Part shown: positions 3,079 through 28,571 of the stretch, one piece after another
How the letters are laid out: each line of letters starts with the position of its first letter
How positions within the stretch are numbered: the stretch's first letter is position 1
Assembly: GCA_902792515.1 (NCBI GenBank)
Contig: CADAZX010000001.1
Coordinates: 72,441-136,440, forward strand
DNA length: 64,000 bases
Source of the DNA: an uncultured Ruminococcus sp.
Lineage (GTDB): Bacteria > Bacillota > Clostridia > UBA1212
Direction: 5' to 3'
Program-made: the position numbers and the translations under genes
Notes under the pieces: model-generated
Databases searched by the model: none
Seen by the model: the letters and a program-made list of their open reading frames with translations, nothing else
Told to the model about the DNA's origin: nothing

Positions 3079-6000
3079 AACCGTCCGGGTGCGTTGTCAG
3101 CCAGCGCGTAGTCCTCCGTGAAGCTTCCGCCGCCTGTCACGAACGTGTCCGGTCCAACCGCGCCCGTTATCGCCGGCACCACGTGAAGCGGCCCGAAAAG
3201 GTTCTTGCGCGTGCACACCAGCGTCACGTTAAAGCCCGTCTTCAGCCACTCCGTAACGTCTGCCTCGTAGGGCTCCCATCCGAGGATCTGCTTCCCGGAG
3301 CCGTCCGGGCCTTCGACCGTCACCAAACTTCCCGCGAAATCCGCGCACCTCAGCACTGCTTTCTCCCCTGTGCGCAGGTCGACGCCGGCGAGCATTTCCG
3401 GCGTTATTTTGTACGTGACCGTGCCCGTATACGAGAGGAGGTTCTGCTCCGCGAGGTCCGCGGGCGTCAGCTTGTCCGGAAGCACCGTCATCTTTTTGTG
3501 ACGCGAGTAGAAGCTTCCGCGGTCGCCCGGCCGCCTTCCGGGGCCTTTTTCGATGAGCTCGGATCTGACTCCGAAATCGCCGACGATATACGCCGCCTCG
3601 ATGTTGGTGGTGCGTCTGAAATGGGTCAGCGCGGTGACGACGTTTTCGCCCACTTTGAGGAGGTCGCGGCTGACGGGAATGGTCTTCAGGCAGTTGTCGG
3701 TCCAGAAGCCGCCGTCGGGAACGAGTTTCTCGCCGTTGACGAAATACGTGATCTTTTCGGGCCTCTCGGCGCAGAGCAGCACGTCGCCCTCGGGAAGGGT
3801 CTCGATCTCAAACGTGTAGTTCAGCGCGATCTGGCCGTAGTCGCTGTCGGCGTACTTTTTCGCGTACCAGGGCTGGAGCATGCCGCCGCCCCTGTGTTCG
3901 ATGCCCACGAAATCGCGCACCGCGCGGTCGAGCTTCAGCACCTCCTGCTCCGGAAAATGCTTCACTGTGCCGTCGGTCGTTATCATGTTCGCGTCGGCAA
4001 AGTCGAGCACCATCGCGTTCTTTTCGCCGAGCTCATAGTCGAATTCGCCCGCGAGCTCCTTAGAAAAGATTACTTCGCGCTTCACGCGCCTTGAAACGCC
4101 GCTCTCCTCCGCGGTCTCCGGCAGCTCGCCGCCGAAGTAGAACACAAAGAAGCGCTCGCCCGCCGGCATAAAGTCTGTCGTGACCGACACCGCGCCGCCG
4201 TTGATCTCAAGCCCGCGCACGTTGTATTTTTTGCCGTCCTCGAGGCACCACTCGACGCATCCGGTGACACCCTCGAATCCGTTTAGAGTCAGTTTCACGT
4301 TTTCCGCTCCGCGCTCCCTGTCGGTGTTCACGACCGCCAGAATGACTATTCCGTCCTTTTCGCGGGCGTCGCGCACCTGGAAGTGAAGTTCGTCGCGTTC
4401 GATATTCTCCGCTGTGAGCGAGACCGAAGCGGCGGGTTTGACGCTTCTCACGACTGCCTCGGGCGTGAACTCGTCGCGCACGCATCCGATTCCGTCAAAC
4501 GCGTTGGAATCCCTCGCGTCGACCATGTAAGGCGCGTCGCCGAGCAGCACGATCCGGCCGCCCGCCTCCGAGAACTCTTTAAGAAGCGCAAGCGTCGTGC
4601 CTCTTACTGTCTTGAGACCGCTGACAACGACCGTCTTGTACTCCATCGAGCCGACCTTCAGGACAGGTCCGTCCTCCCTCTTTTCGACGCGGCCGTGCTT
4701 CGCCATGATCTCCTCTTCGCCGTAGTCGAAGTCGACGTGCGCCGCGCGCATGTAGGCGAAAAGCTTTCTGTAGTGGTCTTCCTGCGCGTTGACGTCCGGG
4801 TCTACCGGCTGTATCCAGCGCGCCCAACCGGCGTAAACGTCCGTCCAGACGCTCTCGATTGGGTTCATTACAAGCACGTCGCACGCCGGCACGCCCTCGG
4901 TCATCAGCACGTTGAACCTCGCGAAGTAGTCCTCCACATATTTATAGTATTTATAATAAGTCGCCTGGTGCAGAATGCTGGCCGGGTAGTCGCGCTTCGC
5001 CTCGCCCTCCATCGTATACCAGGAGAGGTGCGGGCATCTGACGTTGACGCCGTAGAGCGCCTGCCAGTCGCCGACCGCCTTGTGGCCCTTGAAGTTGAAC
5101 TGCCAGCCTGAGCAGCCGTAGAGCTCGGAGAGTATCCACTTTTTGTCGAGCTGCCGCGCCGCCGACTGGATCTGCTTGGCCGCCCAGAAAACGTTCGCGA
5201 ACTCGGACAGGTTGTCGATGCCAGGAACGCCCATGTGCTCGTAAAATCTCATCAGCGAGCCGTTCGGAACGGTCTGGTTGGCAAGGCTGTCCTCGTGGAG
5301 GACGTGGCCCGTAAAGTCGATTCCGTTTTCGACGCACCAGCGGTTGATCGGCTCCGCGAACCTCTCGATGAAGAGGTTGTTGCCGAGGTCGACGTAGTCG
5401 TGCTTGACCGCCCGCGAAGTCGGGAAATCAGGCGCCTTGTAGAAAAACTCCGGCAGCTTTTCCGTGATCGAGTAGCCGTACCTTTTTTCGAACTCGTCGA
5501 AAATGTCGTCCGTGTAGAAAACCGAGCACTTCAGGAAGCCGTTTTCGTCGCGCGTGGCGTTGTCGAGCATGTGTCCTCTGTGCGGTTCGTCGGTGAAAAT
5601 GCCGCGGATCGTCTTCCAGATCTTCCTGCCGGCGTGCTTTTTGTACGCCTCGTGGGTGATCCTGATGAACTCCTCCGTCGCCGCCAGCATCATCGTGTCG
5701 ATGTAGGTCGTCCCGTTGTAACCGCTGCTCGGCCTGTCGTATTCGACAAAAAATTTAAGCAGAACGTGCCTCTGCCCCTCCTGCGCCACGTAAAGCGCCC
5801 GCTCGTTGCTTTTGATCATACGGTAGCGGAGCAGGTTGCCGGTATCTTTCTCGAAAATCGCCTCAAACGTATACAAAAGGTTCTCGGGTTCAGTTCTGTC
5901 GTCCGGCGCCGACTCCTTTACCACAAGCGACTTCATTCTGTACTTCGGGTCGCGCGTGACGATTCCGCCCGCGCATCCGCTCGGCCAGCGGTCCTCGTCG

Positions 6001-6281
6001 TAAAGCCACGGTTCCATCCCGTTTTCGTCGCCGTAGACGGCGACCTTGTTGCAGAGGTCGAACCACTCCTCTCCGAGATACTCGGTAATGAGTCCCGCGC
6101 GGCTGTGCATAAAATACCCGCCGAAGCCCATCTCTTTAAGAACGTCGACCTGCCGCTTCAGTTCCTTCTCCTCGAGTTCGCCGTTCCACGACCAGAAAGG
6201 CTTGCCCCTGAACTCATGACCCGGTGCCGAAAATTCCTTTTCAAGCGCCCCGTAACCTCTGTTTAATATACTGTTATCCAT
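3057..6281 (-). CDS. Large multidomain glycoside-hydrolase-like protein (1074 aa)
   Basis: Long ORF with RBS GGAGGAA. The N-terminal region KPFWSWNGELEE...GYFMHSRAGL...GMEPWLYDEDRWPSG is typical of a TIM-barrel GH-like family and is paralogous to the truncated gene at 1..1768. Family assignment is not secure without a search. Confidence 0.6.
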   Translation of the reverse strand: MDNSILNRGYGALEKEFSAPGHEFRGKPFWSWNGELEEKELKRQVDVLKEMGFGGYFMHSRAGLITEYLGEEWFDLCNKVAVYGDENGMEPWLYDEDRWPSGCAGGIVTRDPKYRMKSLVVKESAPDDRTEPENLLYTFEAIFEKDTGNLLRYRMIKSNERALYVAQEGQRHVLLKFFVEYDRPSSGYNGTTYIDTMMLAATEEFIRITHEAYKKHAGRKIWKTIRGIFTDEPHRGHMLDNATRDENGFLKCSVFYTDDIFDEFEKRYGYSITEKLPEFFYKAPDFPTSRAVKHDYVDLGNNLFIERFAEPINRWCVENGIDFTGHVLHEDSLANQTVPNGSLMRFYEHMGVPGIDNLSEFANVFWAAKQIQSAARQLDKKWILSELYGCSGWQFNFKGHKAVGDWQALYGVNVRCPHLSWYTMEGEAKRDYPASILHQATYYKYYKYVEDYFARFNVLMTEGVPACDVLVMNPIESVWTDVYAGWARWIQPVDPDVNAQEDHYRKLFAYMRAAHVDFDYGEEEIMAKHGRVEKREDGPVLKVGSMEYKTVVVSGLKTVRGTTLALLKEFSEAGGRIVLLGDAPYMVDARDSNAFDGIGCVRDEFTPEAVVRSVKPAASVSLTAENIERDELHFQVRDAREKDGIVILAVVNTDRERGAENVKLTLNGFEGVTGCVEWCLEDGKKYNVRGLEINGGAVSVTTDFMPAGERFFVFYFGGELPETAEESGVSRRVKREVIFSKELAGEFDYELGEKNAMVLDFADANMITTDGTVKHFPEQEVLKLDRAVRDFVGIEHRGGGMLQPWYAKKYADSDYGQIALNYTFEIETLPEGDVLLCAERPEKITYFVNGEKLVPDGGFWTDNCLKTIPVSRDLLKVGENVVTALTHFRRTTNIEAAYIVGDFGVRSELIEKGPGRRPGDRGSFYSRHKKMTVLPDKLTPADLAEQNLLSYTGTVTYKITPEMLAGVDLRTGEKAVLRCADFAGSLVTVEGPDGSGKQILGWEPYEADVTEWLKTGFNVTLVCTRKNLFGPLHVVPAITGAVGPDTFVTGGGSFTEDYALADNAPGRFFIETVV

Positions 6282-12250: not shown

Positions 12251-13390
12251 TTAAGGAAGCATCTTTCCGAATACTCTGTCGAGCACCGCGCCGATCTGGC
12301 CCGCATCCGGGTCGACCGGATTTGCCGTCGTGCAGATATCCTCAAGCGCCGCCTGAATGATTCTGCTTCTGTGCTCGGTGTAGTTCGGCAGGTTCACGCC
12401 GGCCTGGAGAAGCGACGACGGAATCTGAAGCTCGTTGATTAGCTTGTTGATCTCGCGGACAAGATACTGAACGGAGAGTCTCGTTCCCGCCGCGGGCAGC
12501 CCTATTATTCTCGCGATCTCCGCGTACCTTTTCGCCGTGGGCGACTTGTCAGCGCCGAACGGCACGTTTAGAGCCGAGTTGAACGCGATCACGTGGGGCA
12601 GCGTTATCGCGTTTGCCTCGCCGTGAGGAATGTGGAACGCCGCGCCGACTGCGTGTGAGATCGAGTGGCAGATGCCGAGCCCCGCCTTCGTGAACGCCAG
12701 TCCCGCCAGGTACGAAGCCATCATCATATTTTCGCGGGCTGCATCGTCGTCACCGTTTTTGAACGCCTCGGGCAGCCACTCGAACGCGAGCTTGAGCGCC
12801 TTTTCGGCATACGCATCTGTAATCGGGTTCGCGCCCTTCGCGACGTACGCCTCGAACGCGTGTGTAATGACGTCCATTCCCGTGAAAGCGGTGACCTTGG
12901 GCGGCACCGTCTTCGTGAGCTTGTAGTCGAGGATCGCGAGGTCCGGGATCATCCTGTCGTCTGCGAGCGGAATCTTCCTGCCCGCGTCCTCGTCCCTGAT
13001 TACCGTGTAGTTCGTAACCTCCGAGCCCGTTCCGCTTGTCGTCGGAATCGCCACGAATTCCGGGTGAACGTTCATGCCGTCCAGCACCAGAATGACCGCC
13101 TTGGCCGTGTCGATCGCGCTTCCGCCTCCGAGCGCCACAATTACCTCCGCTCCCTTGTCCGTAACGAACTTCAGGCAGTCGGTCACGAGCGTCAGCGTCG
13201 GATCCGGCATAACCTTGTCGTAAACGCTCACGTTGCACGTCCTTAGAAGGTTCACGATCCTGTCGCAGATCCCGTTTTCCTTCATGACCGCGTCGGTAAT
13301 AACGGTCACGTTTTTCTTGCAGTACCTGCCGAGCGCGTCAGTCGCGCCCGCTCCGAATATTAAGTTTGAGCTGATTTGAAATTCCGTCAT
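12251..13390 (-). CDS. Iron-containing (group III) alcohol dehydrogenase, likely lactaldehyde/propanol oxidoreductase (FucO/PduQ-like)
   Basis: GGGSAIDTAKAV, the metal-binding HxxxH region and the Fe-ADH fold. It sits next to the DeoR regulator at the edge of the microcompartment locus. Confidence 0.8.
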   Translation of the reverse strand: MTEFQISSNLIFGAGATDALGRYCKKNVTVITDAVMKENGICDRIVNLLRTCNVSVYDKVMPDPTLTLVTDCLKFVTDKGAEVIVALGGGSAIDTAKAVILVLDGMNVHPEFVAIPTTSGTGSEVTNYTVIRDEDAGRKIPLADDRMIPDLAILDYKLTKTVPPKVTAFTGMDVITHAFEAYVAKGANPITDAYAEKALKLAFEWLPEAFKNGDDDAARENMMMASYLAGLAFTKAGLGICHSISHAVGAAFHIPHGEANAITLPHVIAFNSALNVPFGADKSPTAKRYAEIARIIGLPAAGTRLSVQYLVREINKLINELQIPSSLLQAGVNLPNYTEHRSRIIQAALEDICTTANPVDPDAGQIGAVLDRVFGKMLP

Positions 13391-13453: not shown

Positions 13454-14227
13454 TCAGGCCTCCTGCAGCGGGTAGAGAAGCCCGATCTGCCTCTCCGCAA
13501 AAAACTCCGTCCACTCGATGCCCGGGTTCCTGTCCGTGACAACTATGTCCACGTCCTCGACCTTGCAGATTTCCACCAGCGACACCCGGTTGAACTTCGT
13601 ACTGTCGATCGCGAGAATTTTCGTCCTCGCCGCCCCGATTATCGCCTTTTTGATCTCCGCGTCCTCGTCGTTCGAGTCCGTCAGACCGTTGCGCATGTCG
13701 ATTCCCTTGCACGAAAATATCGCGTAGTCAACGTGGAACGACTTTATCGCCTCGACCGCCCGCGCCCCGACGAACGCGTAGCCGCCCTCCTTGAGCATGC
13801 CCCCTGTCGCGAAAACCCTCCAAAACGGCTTGTCGCACAGCTCGCAAACGATCTCGGACGAATTCGTGATGACCGTCAGGTTCTTCCTGACCTTGAGCGC
13901 CTTGATCACGAAAAGCGCCGTCGAGCTGCCGTCGAGCATCACGTTCGAGCTCTCGGGAATGATATCCCCGGTCACGTTCGCTATCGCCTGCTTGAGTTCC
14001 ACGTTCGACAGCTTTCTGACCGAATACGGCAGGTCGACGTCCGAGCTCTCCGCCAAAACCGCGCCGCCGTAGATTTTCCTCGCGACGCCCTCGTTTTCAA
14101 GCTTGAGAAGGTCTCTCCTGACGGTCTCCTCCGTAACGTCAAAATGCGTCGCAAGGTCGCTGACTATTACCTTTTTCTCTTTCTGAAGCAAGTCCTTAAT
14201 GTACTGCTTCCTCTCGATTGCCAGCAT
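13454..14227 (-). CDS. DeoR/GlpR-family transcriptional regulator
   Basis: N-terminal HTH (RKQYIKDLLQKEKKVIVSDLATHFDVTEETVRRDL) plus a C-terminal DeoR sugar-binding domain. Confidence 0.9.
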   Translation of the reverse strand: MLAIERKQYIKDLLQKEKKVIVSDLATHFDVTEETVRRDLLKLENEGVARKIYGGAVLAESSDVDLPYSVRKLSNVELKQAIANVTGDIIPESSNVMLDGSSTALFVIKALKVRKNLTVITNSSEIVCELCDKPFWRVFATGGMLKEGGYAFVGARAVEAIKSFHVDYAIFSCKGIDMRNGLTDSNDEDAEIKKAIIGAARTKILAIDSTKFNRVSLVEICKVEDVDIVVTDRNPGIEWTEFFAERQIGLLYPLQEA

Positions 14228-14266
14228 CTCTGAAACGCGCCTGCTCTTTCTTCTGTAAAATCCGAT

Positions 14267-14391
14267 GTGTCTCCGCTTGGTCTCCGGTTTAGCTGCCGCA
14301 CTTACCTTAATTCAACGACGCCGCAGCTTTATGTTGGCGGCATGAACGATTCCGCGAAGCGGTCAAGTGAAGGACGCAACTTAAAGTGCGG
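14267..14391. repeat. Intergenic modular repeat, copy A (block X 14267-14295 plus hairpin block Y 14320-14391)
   Basis: Block X is near-identical to 25857-25887. Block Y is near-identical to 25941-26012 and to the reverse complement of 47030-47107. Y has a long imperfect stem enclosing ccgc-gaa-gcgg. Confidence 0.8.
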
Positions 14392-14619
14392 CTGATAATT
14401 TTAGTTGTGTCTACAGCCGGAAATCTGCTGTCCCGAAAATCTGCGCTCTGGAAACTGCAAAGTCCGGAGCTATTTTTGCGTGCGGTCGTCCGAAGCTGTA
14501 CGAAGGTACTGCGAGCGGCGACCTCGCGCAAAGCAGTTTGCCGGGCAATCGCCATAGGCCCCTTATTTTTATATTACAATTCGGCAAACTGCGTAAAGAG
14601 CCCGGAATCTGCAGTTTCC

Positions 14620-15180
14620 TTAGACTATGGTTTCCCAGAGCTTCTTGTCCGGGCGAGGAATGATCGCGCTGTCGAGGCACATGCCTTCCTCCGCGACCGT
14701 CGCTATCGCCTTTTCCACCGCCGCCGTAACCGCCGCCACGTCGCCGGTAAAGAGTACGTACGACTTTCCGGCCATACCGTTCGCGAGCCTCAGCTCAACG
14801 AGCCGGACCTCCGCGGTTTTCGCCGCCACATCAGCCGCGACGATTGCGCCGGCTACCGAAAAAGTCTCAACGATTCCGAGCGCCTCGACCTCTCCGAACT
14901 CCGCGGCACCGAACATTGCCGAGAAGATCGACTCGTGCGGGTTGCCGAGCACGAAGCTGTCCACGAGCATTTCCGGGAAATTCGTTTTCGCCGCTTCGAT
15001 CGCGGCCTTCACGCTTCCGAGCCTTCCCGAGACGAGAATCACGTACTTTCCGGGGCAAACCGGGTGCGCGTCAAGCACCTCGACCTCGGCCGCCTTGATA
15101 AGGATATCGGCCGCTTTGAGACCCGTTGAAATCGTTCTGTATTCGACTAAGCCAATTGCACTGCTCATACCGGTTTTCAC
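14620..15180 (-). CDS. pduT: Tandem-domain BMC-T shell protein, PduT-like
   Basis: Two Pfam00936-type BMC domains. EMLVDSFVLGNPH, GIVETFSVAG and IPRPD motifs, and a Cys in the first domain (HPVCPGKY), match PduT. Confidence 0.8.
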   Translation of the reverse strand: MKTGMSSAIGLVEYRTISTGLKAADILIKAAEVEVLDAHPVCPGKYVILVSGRLGSVKAAIEAAKTNFPEMLVDSFVLGNPHESIFSAMFGAAEFGEVEALGIVETFSVAGAIVAADVAAKTAEVRLVELRLANGMAGKSYVLFTGDVAAVTAAVEKAIATVAEEGMCLDSAIIPRPDKKLWETIV

Positions 15181-15224: not shown

Positions 15225-16562
15225 TTACTGACGGCGCGCGGTAATAACTATCTCTTTATCAGTTACGCTCTCGACTGTTCCGTCGATCGGAGAGTGGAGC
15301 GCGACGCCGAGGCTGGTTGCGGGGGTTGCCGCGATCAGCTGGTTTTTCGTCACCTCATCGCCCGCTTTAACGGAAGGAACGCACGGTACGCCGATGTGCT
15401 GCGAGAGCTTCAGGCGCAGGCGCGTGTATTTCGTTCCTGTCTCGGTGAGGGGCGCGGGAATGTCGTACCTGGAAAGTCCGAGCCTCGCGGTAAGCCTCTC
15501 CTTAGAGAGCATTCTGTGCGGTCTCGTCGCGGAAACGGGCTTCAGCTCCGCCTGTCCGGCCATCGCCACGCCGTGCTTTCTGAGACCTGCCTTGTACTCG
15601 TTGATGAGCGTTTTCGGCGAGAGGCCCTGAGGGCAGGCGTACATCTCGCATACGCCGCAGCCGCAGCAGTAAAGCGTCCCGAGGAACGGTTTCACGTTGT
15701 CCGATCTGAGGCTGACGCCGGCGGTCATAAAGTCGGCCGGTGATATCGGCTCGCCGAGAAGGTGGCGCGGGCAGAGATCCGAACACATGTGGCAGTTGCA
15801 GCAGACGGCTTTCGCCCTTCTGAACTGGAGCTTGATGTTCGGTCTGTGGTGCGTTACCACGTAGGAGTTGTCCGGGAGCAGAATGATGCTGCTCGTCGTC
15901 TTCGTCACAACTCCGTCGGGTCCGGTGAGCGTGCCCATCATCGGTCCGCCGCAGAGGTAGACCGGATTTTCGATCGTCGCGCCGCCGGCTGCCTCAACGA
16001 GCTCCGCGAAAGTAACTCCGAGCGGAACCTTGAGCGTGACGGGGTTCCTGACCTCGCCGCAAACGGTCACGAACTTTTCGGTGACAGGCGTGTCCGCGTG
16101 GATCGCGTTATATATGTTGAGCATCGTCTCGACGTTGTAAACAACGCACCCCACCGCGATCGGAATGCTTCCGGGCGGCACGACTCTGCCTGTTGTCTCG
16201 TAAATCGTCACAACCTCGTCGCCTGCCGGGTAGATCTCGGGCAGAAGGCCGATCTTGATGTGGCGGAACGACGAAAGATTCGCCGTGATCGCCTCCACAG
16301 CGCGTCCGTACGACTGCTTGATTGCGATAATGACATTCGAAACTTCAAGCGCATCTGCGACGTCCTCGAGCGCGGTCATGATCTCGTAAGCGTACTTTTC
16401 CATGACCTGGCGGTGCAGCTTGAGAAGAGGCTCGCACTCGGCGCAGTTAAGAATAACCGTGTCGGCAGACTTGTTGAGTTTGGCGTGCGAAGGGAATCCC
16501 GCTCCGCCGCAGCCGACGATGCCGTTGTTCCGCAATATTTCGATAAGCCTTGACAGTTCCAT
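15225..16562 (-). CDS. pduS: RnfC/NuoF-like Fe-S flavoprotein, PduS-like (cobalamin reductase / electron-transfer protein of microcompartments)
   Basis: GCGGAGFP NADH-binding motif, two 4Fe-4S Cys clusters (CCNCHMCSDLCP; CCGCGVCEMYACP), ~445 aa. Confidence 0.75.
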   Translation of the reverse strand: MELSRLIEILRNNGIVGCGGAGFPSHAKLNKSADTVILNCAECEPLLKLHRQVMEKYAYEIMTALEDVADALEVSNVIIAIKQSYGRAVEAITANLSSFRHIKIGLLPEIYPAGDEVVTIYETTGRVVPPGSIPIAVGCVVYNVETMLNIYNAIHADTPVTEKFVTVCGEVRNPVTLKVPLGVTFAELVEAAGGATIENPVYLCGGPMMGTLTGPDGVVTKTTSSIILLPDNSYVVTHHRPNIKLQFRRAKAVCCNCHMCSDLCPRHLLGEPISPADFMTAGVSLRSDNVKPFLGTLYCCGCGVCEMYACPQGLSPKTLINEYKAGLRKHGVAMAGQAELKPVSATRPHRMLSKERLTARLGLSRYDIPAPLTETGTKYTRLRLKLSQHIGVPCVPSVKAGDEVTKNQLIAATPATSLGVALHSPIDGTVESVTDKEIVITARRQ

Positions 16563-16881
16563 AAATCAATGTCTCTTTCCACCGTGATGCAAAGGCCGTC
16601 CCGCCCTTCCGGTTTTTCACCTTCAAATAGGCGAAAATCGCACGCGCAGCCTCTGCGGTAAAAGTTATTCGTTCGCGCCGCCTCCGCCTTAAGTCTTACC
16701 GTATTTCCGGGAAATATCCCGCGAAGGCAAAACCGCATCGCTCCACTAAGTGGCAGAGCTTTCCGCGGCGCGTTGTTATCCTGTTCAGCCCGTGCGGAAA
16801 GCCTTCCGCAACAGGATCAAAGGTTCCGTTTGCGGCCGCCCCGCTTGTTTTTAAAAGGCGGGGCGGCCTTCAGCGGACCTT

Positions 16882-17145
16882 TTACTCGAGTCCTATGCTG
16901 TCGTCGACGATACCCACAATCGCGGCGTCGATGGGACAGTTGACAAGACCGCAGCCGATTCTGGCCGCGCTTCCTTCGGCGACAAGCACGATTTCGCCTA
17001 TGCCGGCGCCGACGTTGTCGATGGCAACAATTCGCTTTTTGTCGGCCATGCTCTCCATGGGCTCGATGATCATGAACTTATTGCCTATAAGATTTTCGTT
17101 TTTTCTCGTGGCAACGACGCTGCCAACCACTCTTCCTACCAGCAT
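16882..17145 (-). CDS. pduN: BMC vertex (pentamer) protein, EutN/PduN/CcmL family
   Basis: 87 aa. MLVGRVVGSVVAT...KFMIIEP is typical of Pfam03319. Confidence 0.9.
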   Translation of the reverse strand: MLVGRVVGSVVATRKNENLIGNKFMIIEPMESMADKKRIVAIDNVGAGIGEIVLVAEGSAARIGCGLVNCPIDAAIVGIVDDSIGLE

Positions 17146-17197: not shown

Positions 17198-17833
17198 TTA
17201 CTTGACGATCATACCGATGTCGCCGGTCTTGATCTGCGAAGCGTTCGCCTCGTCGGTGTCGATGTGCATCTCGAGCGAGAACGAAGGGTCGACGCGAATC
17301 GCGACGTTGTTGAAAATCGTTCCTCTGTCGTTGTTGAACTTCACAGAAACGACGTCTCCGTCCTTGACTCCCGCCATTTCAGCGTCGTGAGGCGTCATAT
17401 GAATGTGACGCGCCGCGACGATGCAGCCCTCGTCGAGTTGCACCATTCCGCAAGGTCCGACAAGGTTGATCGGAGCGCTTCCGGCAATGTGACCCGAAAG
17501 TCTGACCGGCGCCGGAACGCCGAGCGTGCGGGCATCCGTAAGCGATACTTCAACCTGGGTCTTGCTTCTGCAAGGTCCGAGGATCCTCACGTTCGCTATC
17601 GGGCGAAGTTTGAGGCCGACGATCATAACCTGCTCGTTGCAGGCGTACTGTCCGCCCATGAGGTCCTTCTTCTTGGTCAGATGGTAGCCCTTGCCGAAGA
17701 GTTTCTCAACGTCTTCCTGCGTCAGATGGATGTGTCTCGCGGACACGCCCACGGGCACCTGAAACCCGGTTTCGGACTGCTTTTGGATCACCTCAAGCAC
17801 AGCTCTTGTGATTTCTTCTATCGACTGATTCAT
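17198..17833 (-). CDS. pduL: Phosphate propanoyltransferase PduL
   Basis: Duplicated PduL/EutD-type domains (ARHIHLT...; AARHIHMTPHDA), ~211 aa. Confidence 0.9.
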   Translation of the reverse strand: MNQSIEEITRAVLEVIQKQSETGFQVPVGVSARHIHLTQEDVEKLFGKGYHLTKKKDLMGGQYACNEQVMIVGLKLRPIANVRILGPCRSKTQVEVSLTDARTLGVPAPVRLSGHIAGSAPINLVGPCGMVQLDEGCIVAARHIHMTPHDAEMAGVKDGDVVSVKFNNDRGTIFNNVAIRVDPSFSLEMHIDTDEANASQIKTGDIGMIVK

Positions 17834-18074
17834 TTTCTTCCGCCTTTATTTCTTCCGTTCTTTCCGCCCGGGCGCCTTTCCTTCCTTTAAGAAGGCGGTA
17901 CGCTTTTTTGCAAGCGCTCCGGCGCCCGCGGCATAAAAACTCAACGTTTCCCGGGCAATACTTCAAAGCGCGATACGTCGATTTGATACGTCAATTCGAT
18001 AAGTCAACGCAATGCGTCAACGCGATACCGCAATGATATCCCGCACCGTCCGGGAATTATAAATACGGGGATAA

Positions 18075-19692: not shown

Positions 19693-19927
19693 TTTCGTAA
19701 AATTCTCCGGGTTTTAATCTTTTCCTCCCCGCGGCAGTCCGCCGTTTTTAGGAAGGACGTTATTTTCTGCAGCGGGCATTCTCGAAAATCCTCAAACCGG
19801 GAATCCGGGAACGCTCTGCCGCTCATTCAAAGTCAGCCGGTCTTTTTAAGGGAATGCGCTCTTACGCTTGACATCAAATATTCGCCGCTTGCGTAAAGAG
19901 CATTAAATCTCTGCATTTCCGTGCCGG

Positions 19928-21148
19928 TCACTTGTTGACGATCGCGATCTTGAGACCTTCCTGTCTCAGGTTCACGCCCATCGCCTCGTTGATCTGGTCA
20001 AGCGGGAACTTGTGGGTGATGAGCTCTTTGATCGGGAGCCCGATGCCCTGCGCCCTCTTGAGGAAGTCGAACGTCGTCGCGTAGTCCCTGAGAGTGTAGA
20101 CCCAGGAGCCGACGATCGTGATCTCCTTCGAGCAGATGTCGAAGTGCGGGTTGATTGTCGCGTCGCCGCCGTTGATGAAGAAGCCCAGCTCGCAAAGACC
20201 GCCGCCGTTGCGGATGAACTTGTAGATGTTGGAATGTCCGCCGGGAGCGCCGGTGCACTGGAATCCGAAGTCCGCAAGATGTCCGCCGAACGCGTCCTTG
20301 ACCGCCTCTGTGAGAGCCTCGATGCCCTTGATCTCTCTGTAGTTGACAGAACCCATGGCGCCCATTCTCTTCGCGAATTCAAGTCTCTTCGGGTTTCCGT
20401 CGACCGCCACGATGTTCTGGACGCCGAGCGTTCTCAGAACCGCGATGCAGATGAGTCCGATCGGTCCGCATCCCTGTACAACAACTCTGGAGTTGAATCT
20501 GAGGATGTTCGTGCTCTTCGCTCTCTCGACAGCGTGAACGAGTACCGCGCAGGGCTCGATGAGGATTCTGGAGTCGAGGTCAAGGTCGCTCACGTTGAAG
20601 AACGTGGAGCCGAGCTTGCCGCGAATCAGAATGTAGTCCGAGAACCATCCGTTGAGGTGCACGTCGTCGTCCGGAAGAAGTCCGTAGACGTCCGCACCGC
20701 CGACGTTCTGCTTGTTGAGGTCGAACATCGTGATTTCGGGGTTGTCTTTAAATATCATGCAGGTGACGATCTTGTCTCCGAGGCCCACCGGCTTGCCGGC
20801 GCTGTCGACCTTGACGTTTTTGCCGATCTTCACGATCTCGCCGGTTCCCTCGTGTCCGAGAGCGACCGGGATAAGACTGAACGGGTCTTTTCTGAATTCG
20901 TGAGCGTCGGTTCCGCAAATGCCGCAGCCTTCGACCTTGACGAGAATGTCGTCGTCGCCGACCTCAGGGATCGGATATTCCCTGATTTCGAATTTTTCAA
21001 GAGCGGTAAGGAACGCTACGTGGGCCGTCTTCGGGATCGAGCCGCTCTGTCCTCCCGCGGTATAACCGGAGGCGGGGCGTACCGGAGAGCTGTTCATGGC
21101 CTCAAGCACTTTCCTGACAATCTCTTGAATGTCACGTTGGTTGTCCAT
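19928..21148 (-). CDS. Zinc-dependent (MDR-family) alcohol dehydrogenase with an N-terminal encapsulation-peptide-like amphipathic helix
   Basis: GHEGTGEIV and GCGPIGL Rossmann motifs, plus a structural-zinc Cys region. N-terminus MDNQRDIQEIVRKVLEAMNS, then a ~25-aa G/S/P-rich linker. Confidence 0.75.
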   Translation of the reverse strand: MDNQRDIQEIVRKVLEAMNSSPVRPASGYTAGGQSGSIPKTAHVAFLTALEKFEIREYPIPEVGDDDILVKVEGCGICGTDAHEFRKDPFSLIPVALGHEGTGEIVKIGKNVKVDSAGKPVGLGDKIVTCMIFKDNPEITMFDLNKQNVGGADVYGLLPDDDVHLNGWFSDYILIRGKLGSTFFNVSDLDLDSRILIEPCAVLVHAVERAKSTNILRFNSRVVVQGCGPIGLICIAVLRTLGVQNIVAVDGNPKRLEFAKRMGAMGSVNYREIKGIEALTEAVKDAFGGHLADFGFQCTGAPGGHSNIYKFIRNGGGLCELGFFINGGDATINPHFDICSKEITIVGSWVYTLRDYATTFDFLKRAQGIGLPIKELITHKFPLDQINEAMGVNLRQEGLKIAIVNK

Positions 21149-21162
21149 TTGTTTTTCCTCCC

Positions 21163-22548
21163 TTATCTGATGCAGAGACTGTCTGACATGATGCAGTGTC
21201 TGCGCTTTGTGAATGTCTGAGCGGAAGTGAGTCCCTCACCTGTGCGGCTCGCGATCGTAAACGTGCAGTAGCCTTCGCCGCCGAATCCGAGCGCCGCGTA
21301 GGAAGGCGCGTTCTTGACCAGGATCGCGGTGTCTATCGCCTTGCCGTACTTGGTGATGTTGTCGATGTTCTTCGAGTGGATGTGGGCCGAATGGCGGTTG
21401 CCGTGCTCGAGCCACACCGCTTTCTCGATCGCGTCGTCAATGTCCTTCGCCCTTACGATACCGAGGATCGGCATCATGAGCTCGGTGGCGATGAGCGGGT
21501 GTTCCTTCTCGCCCTCGAAAATGATGCAGCGCACGTTCGACGGAACGTCGACGCCTATCATCTTCATAAGGGTCTTCGCGTCTCTTCCGACGCACTTGCG
21601 GTTGAGCGCGCCCTTCGGCGTGATAACGGTCTCGACGAGCTTCTGAATCTCTTCGGGAGTTGCCTCGTAGCAGCCGTTTTCAAGCAGATGGTACTTGAGC
21701 TCGTCCGCGATCGACTCGACGGCGACAATTTCCTTCTCCGCGATGCACGGGAGGTTGTTGTCGAACGTGCAGCCGTTCACGATGTCTCTCGCCGCCTTCG
21801 GGATGTCGGCCGTGTCGTCAACGAGTGCCGGCGGGTTGCCCGCGCCTGCGCCGATGCCCCTGCGTCCCGACGAGAGAACCGTGGTTACAACGCCCGGTCC
21901 GCCTGTCGCGGCGATGAGCTGGATGGCCTTGTGGGACATCATGATCTTGGACGTATCCAAAGTGGGTTTGACAACGGAAGTCGCGACGTTGTTCGGGCCG
22001 CCCGCCTCGATCGAAGCTCTGTTCACGAGCTCGATCGCGAACTGGGAGGTTTTGATTGCCGCCGGGTGCGGGTTGAAAACGACTGTGTTGCCGCCCGCGA
22101 TCATTCCGATGCTGTTGCAGAGGATCGTCTCGCTGGGGTTGGTCGTGGGCGTGATGGCGCCGATAACGCCGAACGGGCCCATTTCGACAAGGGTAAGTCC
22201 CCTGTCGCCCGACCAAACGCGCGTGGTGATGTCCTCGGTTCCGGGCGTCTTTTCGGCGAGAAGCTTGTGCTTCAAAATCTTGTCGCCTACGTTGCCCATT
22301 CCCGTCTCCTCAACGCCCATTCTCGCGAGGAGTTCCGCATTTTCAATAGTAAGTCTTCTGATGTTGGAGATAATTTTCTCCCTGAAATCCATAGGCATTT
22401 TCTGCATGACCTTTTGGGCCTCGATTGCAGCCGCTATGGCATCGTTCATGTCCTCAAAAATACCGAGTCTTTTTTCTGCCGGCGTATCGTGGAGCTGCAT
22501 GCTTGCCACAACCTGCGCTACGATTGCCTGAATATCGTTCTCGTTCAT
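21163..22548 (-). CDS. pduP: CoA-acylating aldehyde dehydrogenase (PduP/EutE family) with an N-terminal encapsulation peptide
   Basis: ALDH fold with catalytic Cys context (NNLPCIAEKE). N-terminus MNENDIQAIVAQVVASMQ resembles known encapsulation peptides. It overlaps the next gene by 4 nt, which suggests operon coupling. Confidence 0.85.
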   Translation of the reverse strand: MNENDIQAIVAQVVASMQLHDTPAEKRLGIFEDMNDAIAAAIEAQKVMQKMPMDFREKIISNIRRLTIENAELLARMGVEETGMGNVGDKILKHKLLAEKTPGTEDITTRVWSGDRGLTLVEMGPFGVIGAITPTTNPSETILCNSIGMIAGGNTVVFNPHPAAIKTSQFAIELVNRASIEAGGPNNVATSVVKPTLDTSKIMMSHKAIQLIAATGGPGVVTTVLSSGRRGIGAGAGNPPALVDDTADIPKAARDIVNGCTFDNNLPCIAEKEIVAVESIADELKYHLLENGCYEATPEEIQKLVETVITPKGALNRKCVGRDAKTLMKMIGVDVPSNVRCIIFEGEKEHPLIATELMMPILGIVRAKDIDDAIEKAVWLEHGNRHSAHIHSKNIDNITKYGKAIDTAILVKNAPSYAALGFGGEGYCTFTIASRTGEGLTSAQTFTKRRHCIMSDSLCIR

Positions 22549-23209: not shown

Positions 23210-24022
23210 TTATTTGCCGAGCTGCGCCATAACCTTCTTTGTGATTTCGGCGATCAGAGCGTCGTCGGAGCTGCTCGAAGAGGAGGTGTGATGACCCGAG
23301 CATGAACCGCCGCAGTTGTGGCAGCTGGGCTTGCCTTCAAGCGTGTTCGGGCAGAGGTTCGCGGGATGGCGTCCGGGCATACCGAACTTTCTCCTGATCT
23401 CGTAGAGGTCCTCAACCTGCTGGGGAGTGAACTCCTTCGGGCCGCCGAGCATTTTCGACTGGTAGAGGAGCCGGGCGTAGAACTCGGTGGATTCCATCTT
23501 GTAGTACGCGTTGAGGAGCGTGTTCGAATACGTGAGAGCGCCGTGGTTCTCAAGCAGAACGGCGTCGAAATACTGAACGTACTCGGAAACCGCGTCCGGA
23601 ATCTCCTCGGTGGAAGGACGTCCGTACTTCGCGATCGGAACGCAGCCGAGAGCGATGACCGCCTCAGGCATAATGGGCTGAGTCAGCGGAATTCCCGCGA
23701 TCGCGAACGAGGTCGCGTACAGCGGGTGTGCGTGTACGACCGCGTTGACGTCCGGTCTCTCTTTATAGACGCGCATGTGCATTTTGATTTCGGAGGACGG
23801 TTTGAATCCGGCGTTCGCCTGGATGACCTTTCCTTCTCTGTCAACTTTGCAGATGAAGTCGGGCGTCATAAAGCCCTTACTCACACCTGTAGGTGTGCAA
23901 AGGAACTCGTTGTCGTTCAGCTTTACGGAGATGTTGCCGTCGTTGGCGGCGACCATTCCCCTGTCGTAAATACGACGGCCGATGTCGCAGATTTCCTTTT
24001 TGATCTCATACTCTGATTTCAT
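23210..24022 (-). CDS. Class II aldolase (L-fuculose-/rhamnulose-1-phosphate aldolase family) with a Cys/His-rich C-terminal linker and a terminal encapsulation-peptide-like helix
   Basis: The aldolase_II core carries metal-ligand His residues (HAHPLYAT). The C-terminal ~70 aa is an extra: ...CPNTLEGKPSCHNCGGSCSGHHTSSSSSSDDALIAEITKKVMAQLGK. Confidence 0.75.
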   Translation of the reverse strand: MKSEYEIKKEICDIGRRIYDRGMVAANDGNISVKLNDNEFLCTPTGVSKGFMTPDFICKVDREGKVIQANAGFKPSSEIKMHMRVYKERPDVNAVVHAHPLYATSFAIAGIPLTQPIMPEAVIALGCVPIAKYGRPSTEEIPDAVSEYVQYFDAVLLENHGALTYSNTLLNAYYKMESTEFYARLLYQSKMLGGPKEFTPQQVEDLYEIRRKFGMPGRHPANLCPNTLEGKPSCHNCGGSCSGHHTSSSSSSDDALIAEITKKVMAQLGK

Positions 24023-24119
24023 TGAAAAAGCCTCCTGTAAAAAAGTATGTTTATCTGTGGTATTTTTTGCCGGCCCCGCGGCCGTTTGTTTTCGTATTTC
24101 CCGGAAATAATATTGAATA

Positions 24120-24554
24120 TTATTCGCGGCTCAGGTACTCCCTGATTTTTTCCACTCCCTGGCCGGCCACCGAGTCGACGAGGAAGATCTTTTGCGGTTC
24201 GACCCCCATTATGTCCATCCAGTTCATCACCATCGGCACGTTCGCGTCAGGATCGTTTATCTTGGTGATGATCCCTATCACGTCCCTGTTGCAGAACGCG
24301 GTGCTGCCCGGGTCGAAAAGGCAGTACGTCTCGTTCGCGGCTATCAGGAATCCGACCACGTCGGCTTCGTAGGTGTAGAGCCCTATGGCCCTCGCGAACT
24401 CTCTGCTCTGTATGTACTCGCCCGGGGTGTCGATGACGTCGTCGTCGTAGTTGACGTACTGCGTCTTGTGGTAGTGTATCTCCTCGCCCCTGAGCGCCTG
24501 CGTTAAAGTCGTCTTGCCGGCCTCGCTGCGGCCGATCAGAATGATTTTTCTCAT
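24120..24554 (-). CDS. EutP/PduV-family small GTPase
   Basis: P-loop GRSEAGKTTL, ~144 aa, in the microcompartment operon. Confidence 0.85.
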   Translation of the reverse strand: MRKIILIGRSEAGKTTLTQALRGEEIHYHKTQYVNYDDDVIDTPGEYIQSREFARAIGLYTYEADVVGFLIAANETYCLFDPGSTAFCNRDVIGIITKINDPDANVPMVMNWMDIMGVEPQKIFLVDSVAGQGVEKIREYLSRE

Positions 24555-24961: not shown

Positions 24962-25753
24962 TTATCCTCCGATCTGGCATCTCAGGCCGCTCTTTTTCGC
25001 GACCTCCAGAAGCGATTCCATGTACGACTGCGACATCGGCTCGATTCCGTCCAGAAGGTATTCCCTGCCGAGTCCCGTGTACTTGTCCTGCCCGAGCCTG
25101 TGGTACGGAAGCAGGTGGAGCTGCTCAACGCCGGGAAGCGAGGCCGCGAACGTCGCGATCTGCCTTATCTCCTCGGGCGTGTTGTTGAACGTCGGGATGA
25201 CCGGCACCCTTATAATAAGCTCGACGTCGCTCTCCGCGACCTTGCGCGCGTTTTCGAGAATGCGCGTGTTCGGCTTCCCGGTGAACTCCTCGTGCTTTCT
25301 CGGGTCCATGTGCTTGATGTCCATCAAATAAGTGTCGAGGTAAGGGAGAAGCTTTTGGATGTTTTCGAACGGCAGCGTCGCGGCCGACTCGATCGCGGTG
25401 TTGATTCCGTTCTCCTTGGCAGCCCTCAGAAGCGCCGCCGCGAAGTCCGGCTGGCAGAGGCACTCGCCTCCGGAAAGCGTCAGACCTCCGTTCGAGTTCC
25501 GGTAGTAGTCGCCGTCCTTCATGACCTCTTCCATGACTTCAGCCACGGTGACGTCCCTGCCGATTATTTTTTTCTTGCCGGCTACGGTCATCTCCTGGAT
25601 CTTGTACTCCTGGGACTCCGGGTTGCAGCACCATCTGCATCTCAAGACGCAGCCCTTCAAAAAGACTATCGTCCTGATGCCGGTGCCGTCGTGGATCGAA
25701 TATCTCTGGATGTCGAAAATCCTTCCGGTCTGCTGCATGTAGTTGTCGTTCAT
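24962..25753 (-). CDS. Glycyl-radical-enzyme activating enzyme (radical SAM, PflA family)
   Basis: CxxxCxxC radical-SAM motif (CVLRCRWCCNP), glycine-rich SAM motif (LTLSGGECL), ~263 aa. It lies 289 nt downstream of the glycyl radical enzyme. Confidence 0.9.
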   Translation of the reverse strand: MNDNYMQQTGRIFDIQRYSIHDGTGIRTIVFLKGCVLRCRWCCNPESQEYKIQEMTVAGKKKIIGRDVTVAEVMEEVMKDGDYYRNSNGGLTLSGGECLCQPDFAAALLRAAKENGINTAIESAATLPFENIQKLLPYLDTYLMDIKHMDPRKHEEFTGKPNTRILENARKVAESDVELIIRVPVIPTFNNTPEEIRQIATFAASLPGVEQLHLLPYHRLGQDKYTGLGREYLLDGIEPMSQSYMESLLEVAKKSGLRCQIGG

Positions 25754-25829: not shown

Positions 25830-26027
25830 CGAGCTATTTTCGCGTGCGCGGACCCGCGTGTGTCTCCGCTTGGTCTCCGGTTTAGCTGGCGCTAAAAGTC
25901 GCCCTCGCGCGAGACGCACGCGATTCTACCTTATAAACGTCGACGCAGCTTGATATTGCGACATGAACGATTCCGCGTTAGCGGTCAAGTGAGGGACGCA
26001 ACATAAAGTGCGGACTGCGTAAAGAGC
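25830..26027. repeat. Intergenic modular repeat, copy B (blocks Z, X, Y, W), lying between the glycyl radical enzyme and its activase
   Basis: Z 25830-25851, X 25857-25887, Y 25941-26012, W (ctgcgtaaagagc) 26015-26027. The blocks match copies at 14267-14600. Confidence 0.8.
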
Positions 26028-26042: not shown

Positions 26043-28571
26043 TTAGAAATTGTTAGCCTGAGTCGTCCTCGAAATAATGTCGTCCTGGAGGGATCTGGAA
26101 AGCGTCGTGAACAGCGCGCTGTATCCCGCGACCCTTACCACGAGCGCTTTGTACTTCTCGGGGTGCTGCTGAGCGTCGAGCAGCGTCTCGCGGCTGACCA
26201 CGTTGAACTGCACGTGCATGCCCTTTCTGTTGAAGTACGTTCTCAGGTAGGTGATGAAGTCGTTGATGCCCTTCGGGCCCGAGAGCGCCGACGGGTGGAA
26301 CTTCTGGTTGTAGAGAGTTCCGTTGGAGGCGATCAGGTGGTCGATCTTCGCGACCGAGTTTGCCGCCGCCGTGGGTCCGAGCTTGTCCCTGCCCTGTGCG
26401 GGGCCGATGCCGTCCGCGATAGGAGCCTGCGAAAGTCTGCCGTCGGGAGTCGCGCACGACTGGGCGCCGAGCGGAACGTTCGCGGAGACCGGATAGAGGC
26501 CCGCCTGGAAGATGCCGCCGCGAGGATTCCTGAACGTCTCAAGCGGCTTTGTGTATGTGTACGCGACGTCTCTCGCGAAAAGGTCGATCTCGTCGATGTC
26601 GTTGCCGTACTTGGGAAGCGCCTCGATGTCGTCGAGCATCTTTTCGTAGAAATCGACACGCTCTTTGGGGAGCTGCTTGGATGCCGCCGCGCTCGCGTAT
26701 ACCGCCTTGATGACTTCGGGGGTGATCTCCCTGCCGTCCTTGGCGAGCTTAGCGCAGACCGTCTTCACGATGTGCTCCATATCGAGCGGCGTGAGCCCTT
26801 TTCCGAAGTTGTCCGCCATAGCCTGCTTGAAATCGGCCATCGTGTACTTTTTCTCCTCGAAAACGAGCTTTTTGATCGCGAACAGGCCGTCCGCGACGTT
26901 GGCGATACCGAAGCCTTGAGGGCCGGTGAAGTTGTAGATCGCTCCGCCCTCTTCCACGCACTTGCCGGATTCGAAGCACCCGTCTGTGAGGCAGGACTCG
27001 AACGGAAGCGGGCTTCTCTGAGCGTGGGCGTAATCTATCGCGTTGATTGCGTTTACCATCAGCGCGATGGAGGTTGTCATCTGCTTCTTGTAGGCGTTGT
27101 AGAGCTCGTCGAACGTAGTCATCTTGAGCACGTCGCCCGTCTCGACAGTTACAAGCTCGCCGTCCTCCCAGCCGTTCGTGAACGTGAGCTCGAGAGGTCT
27201 GAGCATGTTGAAGAACGCCGCGTCGTGCCAGCCGTCGGTCTTGCCCGGAACCTGGGGCTCCACGCAGCCGATAATGTTGTACTCGCGCGCCTCTTCAAGC
27301 GGAATTCCGCGGTTCATGAGGGCGGGAATGATGACCTCGTCGTTGTAGTAAGCCGGGAGGCCGATACCGGTTCTGGTGAGCTCGACCGCCTTCACAAGGA
27401 TCTCGTGGGGCGTTCCGTTCCAGATCCTGATGGAAAGAGAAGGCATCGGCAGTCCGGTGTGCATGGAAGCTTCGATGCACATCGCGGAAAGGTCGTTCGT
27501 GACGTCCTTGCCGTCCCTGTCCTGGCCGCTTACGATCAGGTTCTGGAAGAGGCTGTAGCCGGCGAATCCCTCCGCGGAAGCGGCGTCGCGGCACTTGTTG
27601 AGGTCGTTCAGCTTGATCCAGATGCAGTCGAGAAGCTCCTGCGCGGACTCTCTCGTGATCGTACCTGCGTCGAGGTCCTTTTTATAATAAGGATACATAT
27701 ACTGGTCGAATCTTCCGGGCGAGATCGAGTGGCCGCTCGACTCAAGCTGGAGGAGCTGCTGCACGAACCAGAAAGCCTGGCACGCCTCGTGGAACGACTT
27801 GGCCGGATTCTCGGGAACGTTGCGGCACACCTGCGCGATCTTAAGCAGGTCGGTGCGCCTCTCGCCGCTCGCGGACTGAGCCATTTTCTCAGCCAGATCA
27901 GCGTATCTGTTGGCATATCTGATGACCGCCTTGCAGCTTCTGATGACCGCCTCATAGAAGATCCTGCGCTTGCACGCGTCTGCCTTGCCTACGCACATCT
28001 CCGCCATTTCCTTTTCGGCTCTCGCGATGACGCCCTTGAGGCCCTCGCCGAGAACGGTCCAGTATGTGACCGTGATGTGGCCGATGCCGTTGTAGAAATA
28101 GTTGCCCGGCGTGAAAATGTTGTGGTTAATCGCCCTGAGAGCTCTCGGGTCCATAAACGCCGTCGCGAGCTCGCTTGTAGTCTTGTTCTTCCAGTACTTG
28201 TCCGCCTCCGCGATCCTGCGCTTGGCGTCTTCGCTGATATTGAACGGGTCCGCCTTTCTGTCGGCGACGGTGTCGAACTCCGCCTCGAGCCACTCGTACG
28301 AGAACTCCGGATAAGTCTGGCAGCCTCTCATTTTAATCGTGGTGCTGCCGACGATGAGTTCGTCGTCGCGGATGACGATCGGAATGTTGTCCAGAATGTG
28401 CTCGAACGCCCTCGATTTCCTCTCCACCTCGGGAAGGTTCTCGGTAGCTTTGTACGACTCTGTAATAAGTTCAGCCCTCGCCGGCTCAATCTCCGGTTTA
28501 GCATTATAAAAGGCGTCAAGGAGTCTGTCGATTCTGGCGGTCTTTTTGATTGGGCTCGTATCGAAATTCAT
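26043..28571 (-). CDS. Glycyl radical enzyme, probable B12-independent 1,2-propanediol dehydratase (PFL2/glycerol-dehydratase class)
   Basis: 842 aa. Glycine-radical motif RVAGYSALF near the C-terminus. Eliminase-type active-site loop GCVEP. N-terminal region (ELITESYKATE...AFEHIL...IRDDELIVGSTT) and the internal WFVQQLLQLESSGHSISPGRFDQYMYPYY block match remembered diol-dehydratase sequences. Confidence 0.7.
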   Translation of the reverse strand: MNFDTSPIKKTARIDRLLDAFYNAKPEIEPARAELITESYKATENLPEVERKSRAFEHILDNIPIVIRDDELIVGSTTIKMRGCQTYPEFSYEWLEAEFDTVADRKADPFNISEDAKRRIAEADKYWKNKTTSELATAFMDPRALRAINHNIFTPGNYFYNGIGHITVTYWTVLGEGLKGVIARAEKEMAEMCVGKADACKRRIFYEAVIRSCKAVIRYANRYADLAEKMAQSASGERRTDLLKIAQVCRNVPENPAKSFHEACQAFWFVQQLLQLESSGHSISPGRFDQYMYPYYKKDLDAGTITRESAQELLDCIWIKLNDLNKCRDAASAEGFAGYSLFQNLIVSGQDRDGKDVTNDLSAMCIEASMHTGLPMPSLSIRIWNGTPHEILVKAVELTRTGIGLPAYYNDEVIIPALMNRGIPLEEAREYNIIGCVEPQVPGKTDGWHDAAFFNMLRPLELTFTNGWEDGELVTVETGDVLKMTTFDELYNAYKKQMTTSIALMVNAINAIDYAHAQRSPLPFESCLTDGCFESGKCVEEGGAIYNFTGPQGFGIANVADGLFAIKKLVFEEKKYTMADFKQAMADNFGKGLTPLDMEHIVKTVCAKLAKDGREITPEVIKAVYASAAASKQLPKERVDFYEKMLDDIEALPKYGNDIDEIDLFARDVAYTYTKPLETFRNPRGGIFQAGLYPVSANVPLGAQSCATPDGRLSQAPIADGIGPAQGRDKLGPTAAANSVAKIDHLIASNGTLYNQKFHPSALSGPKGINDFITYLRTYFNRKGMHVQFNVVSRETLLDAQQHPEKYKALVVRVAGYSALFTTLSRSLQDDIISRTTQANNF

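Follow-up and report, generated by a model that had tools for sequence, protein, structure and literature searches.

The window (the whole 64-kb stretch of DNA that was analysed) contains an operon which, judged by its gene content, is of the glycyl-radical-enzyme microcompartment type and resembles the fucose/rhamnose (GRM5) systems. The operon lies on the minus strand. The following genes were assigned by Pfam matches and are listed from upstream to downstream.

26043-28571, minus strand: glycyl radical enzyme (GRE)
24962-25753, minus strand: activase (AE)
24120-24554, minus strand: PduV
23210-24022, minus strand: class II aldolase
21163-22548, minus strand: aldehyde dehydrogenase
19928-21148, minus strand: Zn-ADH
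several, minus strand: BMC shell genes
17198-17833, minus strand: PduL
16882-17145, minus strand: eutN/pduN, BMC vertex protein of 87 aa (PF03319, E 7.9e-29), the cistron upstream of the spacer described here
15225-16562, minus strand: pduS, flavin/FeS protein of 445 aa (PF01512, SLBB, Fer4_17, RnfC_N), the cistron downstream of the spacer
14620-15180, minus strand: PduT, next after pduS
13454-14227, minus strand: DeoR regulator
12251-13390, minus strand: Fe-ADH

The GRM5 subtype comprises a GRE with its activase, a class II (fuculose-phosphate-type) aldolase, an alcohol dehydrogenase, PduS and PduT, and the last two are constant members of the fucose/rhamnose systems (PMC6325248). The window has this gene set on its minus strand, as GRE, activase, class II aldolase, PduL, EutN, PduS, PduT, DeoR and Fe-ADH; the enzyme specificities are read from Pfam family membership only. 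The gene content is that of GRM5 and differs from the B12-dependent Pdu system.

The eutN and pduS genes are separated by exactly 319 nt (16563-16881, sense strand minus), as the initial annotation had it. The gap had been set against all other junctions of the operon, which were given as 4-60 nt. By ORF coordinates eight other junctions measure 97-392 nt, and independent gene calls on an identical contig give 235, 164, 241 and 435 nt for four of these eight; the GRE to AE gap is 289 nt and falls outside that contig. The premise that eutN-pduS is the sole long junction was therefore wrong. Among the operon's spacers, the one between eutN and pduS is nonetheless the most strongly structured (z -5.3), the next having z-scores of -3.5, -3.2 and -2.75. 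Folded by itself it has a minimum free energy (MFE) of -138.4 kcal/mol on the sense strand (z -5.5, no shuffled sequence being as stable) and of -120.3 kcal/mol on the antisense strand (z -4.7, again reached by no shuffle).

The gap had also been described as containing no ORF. It is indeed non-coding, with no conserved ORF or Pfam match, but mechanical ORFs do overlap it, one of 120 aa on the minus strand and three of 56, 34 and 30 aa on the plus strand. All four lack a Pfam match, and three of them are located or start in sequence that is missing from a closely related lineage (lineage B, below). No gene lies between eutN and pduS in about 150 related loci. A decayed or small gene in the gap was rejected on the lack of a Pfam match and of an intervening gene in those loci. 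No tandem repeats were found within the gap. The spacer is thus real, non-coding and unusually hairpin-rich, and its parts are as follows.

16563-16881, minus strand: whole eutN-pduS intercistronic spacer, 319 nt, non-coding (ORF coordinates, folding, Rfam, Pfam)
16820-16881, minus strand: extended hairpin 1, with an imperfect lower stem AAGGUCCG / CGGAACCUU and a 5/5-nt internal loop (folding)
16834-16868, minus strand: hairpin 1 core, an 11-bp perfect all-G-C stem with a 13-nt A/U-rich loop (-27.1 kcal/mol, z -4.3)
16778-16817, minus strand: hairpin 2, AUCCUGUUGCGGAA-GGCU-UUCCGCA...AACAGGAU (folding; inside the lineage-A-only block)
16690-16840, minus strand: block of about 151 nt present in lineage A only (alignment of A and B spacers)
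16674-16772, minus strand: central three-way-junction domain, an 8-bp GC closing helix and two hairpins (folding)
16652-16667, minus strand: 16-nt box UAACUUUUACCGCAGA, identical in lineages A and B and invariant within A
16563-16579, minus strand: the 17 nt preceding the pduS AUG, GAAAGAGACAUUGAUUU, with a weak Shine-Dalgarno-like (SD) AAGAG, identical in all A and B variants

The stem of hairpin 1 begins 13 nt past the eutN TAA. Its arms, GGCCGCCCCGC (16868-16858) and GCGGGGCGGCC (16844-16834), enclose the 13-nt loop CUUUUAAAAACAA. A perfect 13-bp GC hairpin had been reported at this place; the hairpin is real, but its stem has 11 bp, the earlier 3' arm being one G too long. Extended by the lower stem (sense positions 1-62) it reaches -38.5 kcal/mol (z -6.1). 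The hairpin that follows eutN is the strongest among 18 post-stop regions, with -36.6 kcal/mol where the others have -9 to -27. The reported absence of a U-tract holds on both strands, the stem being followed by GCAAACGG on the sense strand and by UUCAGCGG on the antisense strand. T-tracts do follow the genuine terminators of the window. Hairpin 1 has the G+C-rich stem of a canonical intrinsic terminator (11 bp, all G-C, -27.1 kcal/mol), and lacks the short loop (3-8 nt) and the U-tract, its loop being 13 nt long.

A protein identical to EutN is found in 141 blocks of the assembly index, and the contigs with exactly the same EutN split into two lineages, A and B. Lineage A consists of the window and identical or near-identical contigs and has a spacer of 318-319 nt. 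Lineage B, which includes UBA1212, has a shorter spacer, of 167-192 nt, in which a 22-25-nt tandem unit is present one to three times. The spacers of the two lineages are largely unalignable despite the closeness of the flanking genes (EutN 100% and PduS 97% identical, flanking third-codon identity 85-89%). They have only three pieces in common, namely the all-GC stem-loop after the stop codon, the 16-nt box and the last 17 nt. Set against a background identity of about 87%, the conservation of islands of 16 and 17 nt counts as weak evidence for the reading favoured below. The block of about 151 nt is flanked by an imperfect direct repeat, UUAA...GCGG[G/A]GGCGGC, which points to a single insertion or deletion relative to lineage B; its boundaries are approximate since the flanks are low-complexity GC.

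The lineage B counterpart of hairpin 1 is an all-GC stem, CGCCGCCCGCCC/GGGCGGGCGGCG, with a 13-nt loop (-36.9 kcal/mol, z -5.6), so that both lineages carry an 11-12-bp perfect all-GC stem with equal loop length right after the stop. A reading of the two hairpins as compensatory versions of one stem was considered and withdrawn. They are not counted as covariation because a single deletion or other indel between similar GC-rich arms explains both equally well. A strong hairpin 1 is absent or insignificant in sister species, and any function of it would therefore be young and lineage-specific.

The number of distinct A-type spacers is six, after a second look-up with PduL. Spacer identity within lineage A is about 97%, equal to the third-codon identity of pduS (97-98%), with a diversity of 1-3%; the spacer thus appears to evolve at about the neutral rate. 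Among the 98 pairs of the window MFE, the six variants show both-sided changes in none, one-sided wobble-compatible changes in four and broken pairs in eight. The broken pairs map to the lower stem of hairpin 1, which is disrupted in two of the six variants (CCUUU to CAAU), to hairpin 2 and to the 3' module. The hairpin 1 core and the helix between the box and the SD region show no variation at all in the six variants, unlike the neighbouring helices.

Hairpin 2 corresponds to the second stem, TGCGGAA/TTCCGCA, of the initial annotation; this stem is real, with the correction that its loop is GGCU. It is missing from lineage B, and three of its pairs are broken without compensation in other A variants, the pair 69/100 being intact in the window only. 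The central domain has a stability of -46.4 kcal/mol on the sense strand (z -2.9) and of -35.1 kcal/mol on the antisense strand (z -1.5). All eight of its polymorphic sites among lineage A variants are unpaired or wobble-compatible, a pattern that gives a weak hint of RNA-level constraint (p about 0.01-0.04, a rough estimate). The domain is mostly missing in lineage B, and a covariance model built from it recovered only itself in the window and 33 loci. A palindrome, UAUUUCCCGGAAAUA, lies inside the domain at 16702-16716. Palindromes of the form TATTTCC(C/G)GGAAATA (15-16 nt) occur in two spacers of the operon, at 16702-16716 and 24095-24109.

At the 3' end of the spacer, the CUUUU-A-CCG of the box can pair with CGG-NN-GAAAG just upstream of the pduS start, and this helix is found in the MFE structures of both lineages. 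A box-like sequence, GAGUAACUUUUA, immediately precedes the AUG in loci L006 and L091, and from this resemblance the box may be a relic of an ancestral pre-AUG sequence. The SD window of pduS is paired with a mean probability of about 0.6, a value not above that of relatives, and the SD-like sequences of pduS are weak across the whole clade.

Conservation of the spacer in relatives had been set beforehand as a test of the element, and the spacer proved largely not conserved. The further stems beyond hairpin 1 do not form a conserved element, since they sit in the 151-nt block that lineage B lacks, and their broken pairs are uncompensated. A riboswitch or conserved cis-regulatory RNA fails on three counts: no compensatory changes, 151 nt missing in lineage B and unalignable spacers in the sister clades. 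On this comparison the spacer is a recent, strain-variable expansion and not a conserved RNA element.

PduL (17198-17833, compared with L001 and L086) is 75% identical between lineages A and B, with 211 and 213 aa and a DNA identity of about 78%. The much higher identities of EutN (100%) and PduS (97%) suggest that a recombination breakpoint lies close to the pduL/eutN junction. Contigs with identical EutN (L081-L090) differ in the length of the PduT-DeoR spacer (14228-14619 in the window), which lies between 53 and about 660 nt, and other junctions of the operon are thus length-polymorphic as well.

A scan of genomes with PduS returned 80 species-level loci, of which the nearest is from a Mageeibacillus sp. 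UBA1212 MAG (PduS 97%); a metagenome scan with EutN gave one close relative among the matches listed. The eutN-pduS junction is 15 nt or less, typically 4 nt, in 57 of the 89 loci of the first two fetches in which both genes were placed, and mostly 4-9 nt in the metagenome loci added later. The 57 short junctions indicate that a tight, probably translationally coupled spacing is the norm. In a sister group with PduS identities of 75-78%, five genomes (L002, L003, L005, L006 and L091) have spacers of 63-74 nt without significant structure (z -0.6 to -0.9). Another sister clade (PduS 71-75%) has junctions of 71, 79, 146 and 292 nt, which are mutually unalignable, the longer ones being GC-rich and hairpin-rich. 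The inserts of 146 and 292 nt in that clade (L181 1355-1500; spacers of L004 and L182) are GC-rich and unrelated, with MFEs of -59 and -130 kcal/mol; independent expansion of the junction has therefore taken place more than once. No lineage intermediate between A/B and the sister species is present in the protein collection, where PduS identity jumps from 97% to 78%. Across these loci the eutN-pduS junction is, by sequence comparison, hypervariable in these rumen Clostridia and leaves almost no gap in most other operons of this kind.

An Rfam covariance-model scan, which the initial annotation had proposed as a check, matched no family at gathering thresholds in the whole window. At E values up to 10 the region 16400-17000 gave only chance-level matches (Spot_42, MIR7510 and RNaseP-T), the Spot_42 match being on the plus strand with 19.8 bits (gathering score 80) and E 0.26. 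Blastn found no second copy of the spacer either in the window (64 kb) or among 170 related loci, and the phage and plasmid collections contain no match. Four other spacer types, searched by blastn in the window and in every locus, gave matches at orthologous positions only. A dispersed repeat of the REP or MITE kind was rejected, there being no further copy in the window, the 170 loci or the phage and plasmid collections. Within the gap no terminator-like site was called, no promoter-like (sigma-70-like) site was called on the sense strand, and no promoter-plus-terminator pair was found on either strand.

Stem-loops 3' of cistrons set transcript ratios in the cip-cel operon, as has been studied experimentally in Clostridium (PMC4423207). 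The spacer resembles the SRPS of that operon (PMC4423207) in several ways. Each has a stable stem-loop 3' of a cistron in a long multi-subunit operon of Clostridia, in each the intergenic sequences lengthen and related species differ by gains and losses of stem-loops, and the proposed outcome is in each case subunit stoichiometry. Assuming co-transcription, hairpin 1 is a stable stem-loop just downstream of a cistron, as expected of the 3' stem-loop of an SRPS. An orthologous stem-loop in related genomes also belongs to the definition; here a stem-loop is present in lineages A and B and absent or insignificant in the sister species. The validated cip-cel stem-loops have -14 to -24 kcal/mol and hairpin 1 has -27 to -38. 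Unlike them, hairpin 1 is confined to one species-level group.

In cellulolytic Clostridia, ABC-importer operons carry partial intrinsic terminators at internal sites, the Type IV stem-loops; they have long GC stems, an unpaired region in mid-stem and a U-poor tail, and stems stripped of their U-rich tails gave no termination in the same Clostridium study (PMC9045158). Hairpin 1 is similar in its long GC-rich stem, the unpaired region in mid-stem and the paired, U-poor 3' strand (CCUUU), and it is also sited just after the cistron expected to be more abundant. It differs in its 13-nt loop and in its short U run, which is lost in two of the six lineage A variants.

REP/BIME intercistronic palindromes stabilise upstream mRNA by shielding it from 3' exonucleases, for example in E. 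coli malE-malF, and belong to dispersed families of hundreds of copies. Hairpin 1 is likewise a GC-rich palindrome without a U-tract between cistrons, but it has no second copy in the 64-kb window or the 170 related loci. In the eut operon of Enterococcus and Clostridium, the terminators controlled by ANTAR (EutV) are canonical, are overlapped by paired hexaloop hairpins and need an ANTAR regulator. The likeness here is that of RNA hairpins in intergenic regions of a Firmicutes microcompartment operon. The window spacer differs in having no U-tract, and the only regulator among the scanned operon genes is of the DeoR type. No dual hexaloop motif was seen by eye in the spacer. An intercistronic stem-loop in a fast-evolving spacer is an ordinary kind of feature, here in a new place.

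The reading that we tentatively favour, and to which we give slightly less than an even chance, is that of a transcribed non-coding spacer, built by recent indels, which uncouples pduS-pduT translation from eutN and in which hairpin 1 acts as a 3' barrier or leaky attenuator. The anatomy, the fold statistics and the comparative pattern are established; co-transcription and any effects on RNA stability, termination and translation are inferred. Recent insertions, deletions and duplications of GC-rich, hairpin-forming sequence would have built the spacer, most of whose 319 nt, including the 151-nt block, would be dispensable filler evolving at the neutral rate. The pieces that appear to be maintained are the all-GC stem-loop after the stop, the 16-nt box and the 17 nt that precede the pduS AUG. 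Through its length the spacer would put an end to the coupling of pduS translation to eutN, for which the usual junction of 0-9 nt leaves room. By analogy with the Clostridium operons above (PMC4423207 and PMC9045158), hairpin 1 could block 3'-to-5' exonucleases, serve as a leaky attenuator or combine the two roles, so that the message of the upstream shell and enzyme genes would outlast or outnumber that of pduS-pduT. Pairing of the box with the weak ribosome-binding region of pduS may dampen initiation further. The net outcome would be lower PduS and PduT relative to the upstream products, and hairpin 1 may, at most, lower the expression of downstream genes. Counting against this reading are the missing U-tract and the 13-nt loop of hairpin 1, the T-tracts of genuine terminators in the window, the lack of a strong hairpin in sister species, the single deletion that may relate the A and B hairpins, and an SD pairing probability that does not exceed that of relatives. 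The initial annotation had proposed an internal attenuator, RNA-processing or stability element for the stems of the gap as a whole; a stability or attenuation role is plausible for hairpin 1 only, which is very stable, lies right after the stop and has a counterpart in lineage B, while the further stems are unconserved.

It is rather unlikely, yet deserves serious weight, that the spacer is neutral junk at a mutational hot spot (slippage, quasi-palindrome extension, indels), with its length unselected and its hairpins inert; the hairpins would persist as deletions between similar GC-rich arms regenerate palindromes. Such a history would account for spacers that cannot be aligned between sub-lineages (71, 79, 146 and 292 nt in one, 63-74 nt in another), for the 151-nt indel at a direct repeat that separates A from B, for the one to three tandem 22-25-nt units of B, for a substitution rate close to the synonymous rate and for the absence of compensatory changes beside eight broken pairs. 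It accounts less well for the post-stop hairpin, which is an extreme outlier in stability and of which A and B both keep an 11-12-bp all-GC stem with the same loop length in the same place, or for a hairpin 1 core and box/SD helix that are invariant in six variants when neighbouring helices are not. These last observations also speak for the barrier or attenuator reading.

The spacer could instead be internal regulatory DNA that divides the operon into two transcription units, with a promoter or operator for pduS-pduT such as the palindrome TATTTCCCGGAAATA bound by a transcription factor. A near-identical 16-nt palindrome in a second operon spacer (24095-24109), the over-representation of its 13-mer core in the window (15 strand matches, 2.1 expected) and the operator-like repeat arrays in other operon spacers are in keeping with this. 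We regard it as improbable, however, as no sense-strand sigma-70-like promoter was called in the gap, the palindrome is missing from lineage B and mutated at outer positions in two of six A variants, and the 13-mer otherwise occurs mostly within long ORFs, where codon usage may explain the enrichment. Still less probable is a lineage-specific structured cis-regulatory RNA in which the central three-way junction (16674-16772) binds a ligand or protein and controls pduS-pduT. The stability of the domain is sense-specific owing to G-U pairs, and its eight polymorphisms are all unpaired or wobble-compatible where the flanking helices are disrupted, which has a chance of about 0.01-0.04. Most of the domain is nevertheless deleted in the widespread lineage B, no Rfam match at E up to 10 and no other covariance-model copy were found, and there is no true covariation at a diversity of only 1-3%. 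The bolder form of this proposal is an equally long shot: that the domain of about 100 nt is newly evolved and tunes electron transfer by PduS/PduT, and that the recurrent expansion of the junction reflects selection for control apart from the shell. Close to refuted, finally, is an independent small RNA, antisense transcript or small protein gene in the gap. The weak Spot 42-like match on the plus strand (19.8 bits) is far under threshold and neither strand has a promoter-plus-terminator pair. The mechanical ORFs of 30-120 aa that overlap the gap have no Pfam match, with three of the four located or starting in the block that lineage B lacks. Nothing points to a separate transcript of the kind that the initial annotation had offered as an unannotated small RNA, and the gap matches no Rfam family.

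The role of the accessory FeS module in glycyl-radical microcompartments is still open (PMC6325248). If hairpin 1 lowers pduS-pduT relative to the upstream genes, the locus would illustrate how stoichiometry in a microcompartment operon is controlled in nature at the RNA level, and the control would concern this module. It would also show that a single species-level lineage can acquire such control when a junction that is normally translationally coupled undergoes junk-like expansion. The junction provides a natural series of three types, the A-type of 319 nt, the B-type of 167-192 nt and the ancestral type of 0-9 nt. If the spacer is neutral, it offers a caution only, namely that a strong fold z-score does not make a conserved RNA of intergenic DNA that is GC-rich.

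Several repeats occur elsewhere in the window. A 12-nt motif, GCUCUUUACGCA, usually within GAUUAAAUGCUCUUUACGCAAGCGGCGAA, has five copies where 0.3 are expected, all on the minus strand (14590-14601, 19890-19901, 26016-26027, 28718-28729 and 47244-47255). The copies are all sense-strand and intergenic, being found downstream of GRE, Zn-ADH and PduT, and also ahead of GRE. They are kept at the same places in contigs of lineages A and B and are absent from sister species; the motif could be a regulatory or processing signal. A 70-nt element with 93-94% identity is present in the PduT-DeoR and GRE-activase spacers and inverted near 47 kb (14324-14393, 25980-26013 and 47029-47098). The 82-aa ORF 14307-14555, which covers one copy of this element, has no Pfam match. 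The same two spacers share an exact 28-nt repeat, AGCUAAACCGGAGACCAAGCGGAGACAC (14267-14294 and 25860-25887).

The spacer between a BMC gene and pduL (241 nt, z -3.5) contains about 3-4 tandem 13-nt units TTGACGyATCnnn at 17971-18020, which from their sequence look like an operator or iteron array. At 2966-3068 there are 3.7 tandem copies of the 28-nt unit CGCGAAGTTACACAACCGTTCTTGTTTG (93% matches), which are intergenic and directly upstream of a 1074-aa minus-strand ORF (3057-6281). The minus-strand ORF 30876-32123 contains about 20 copies of TAGGCG hexamer repeats at 31566-31692 and 15-nt tandem repeats at 31971-32032; these probably encode a low-complexity linker region of the protein.
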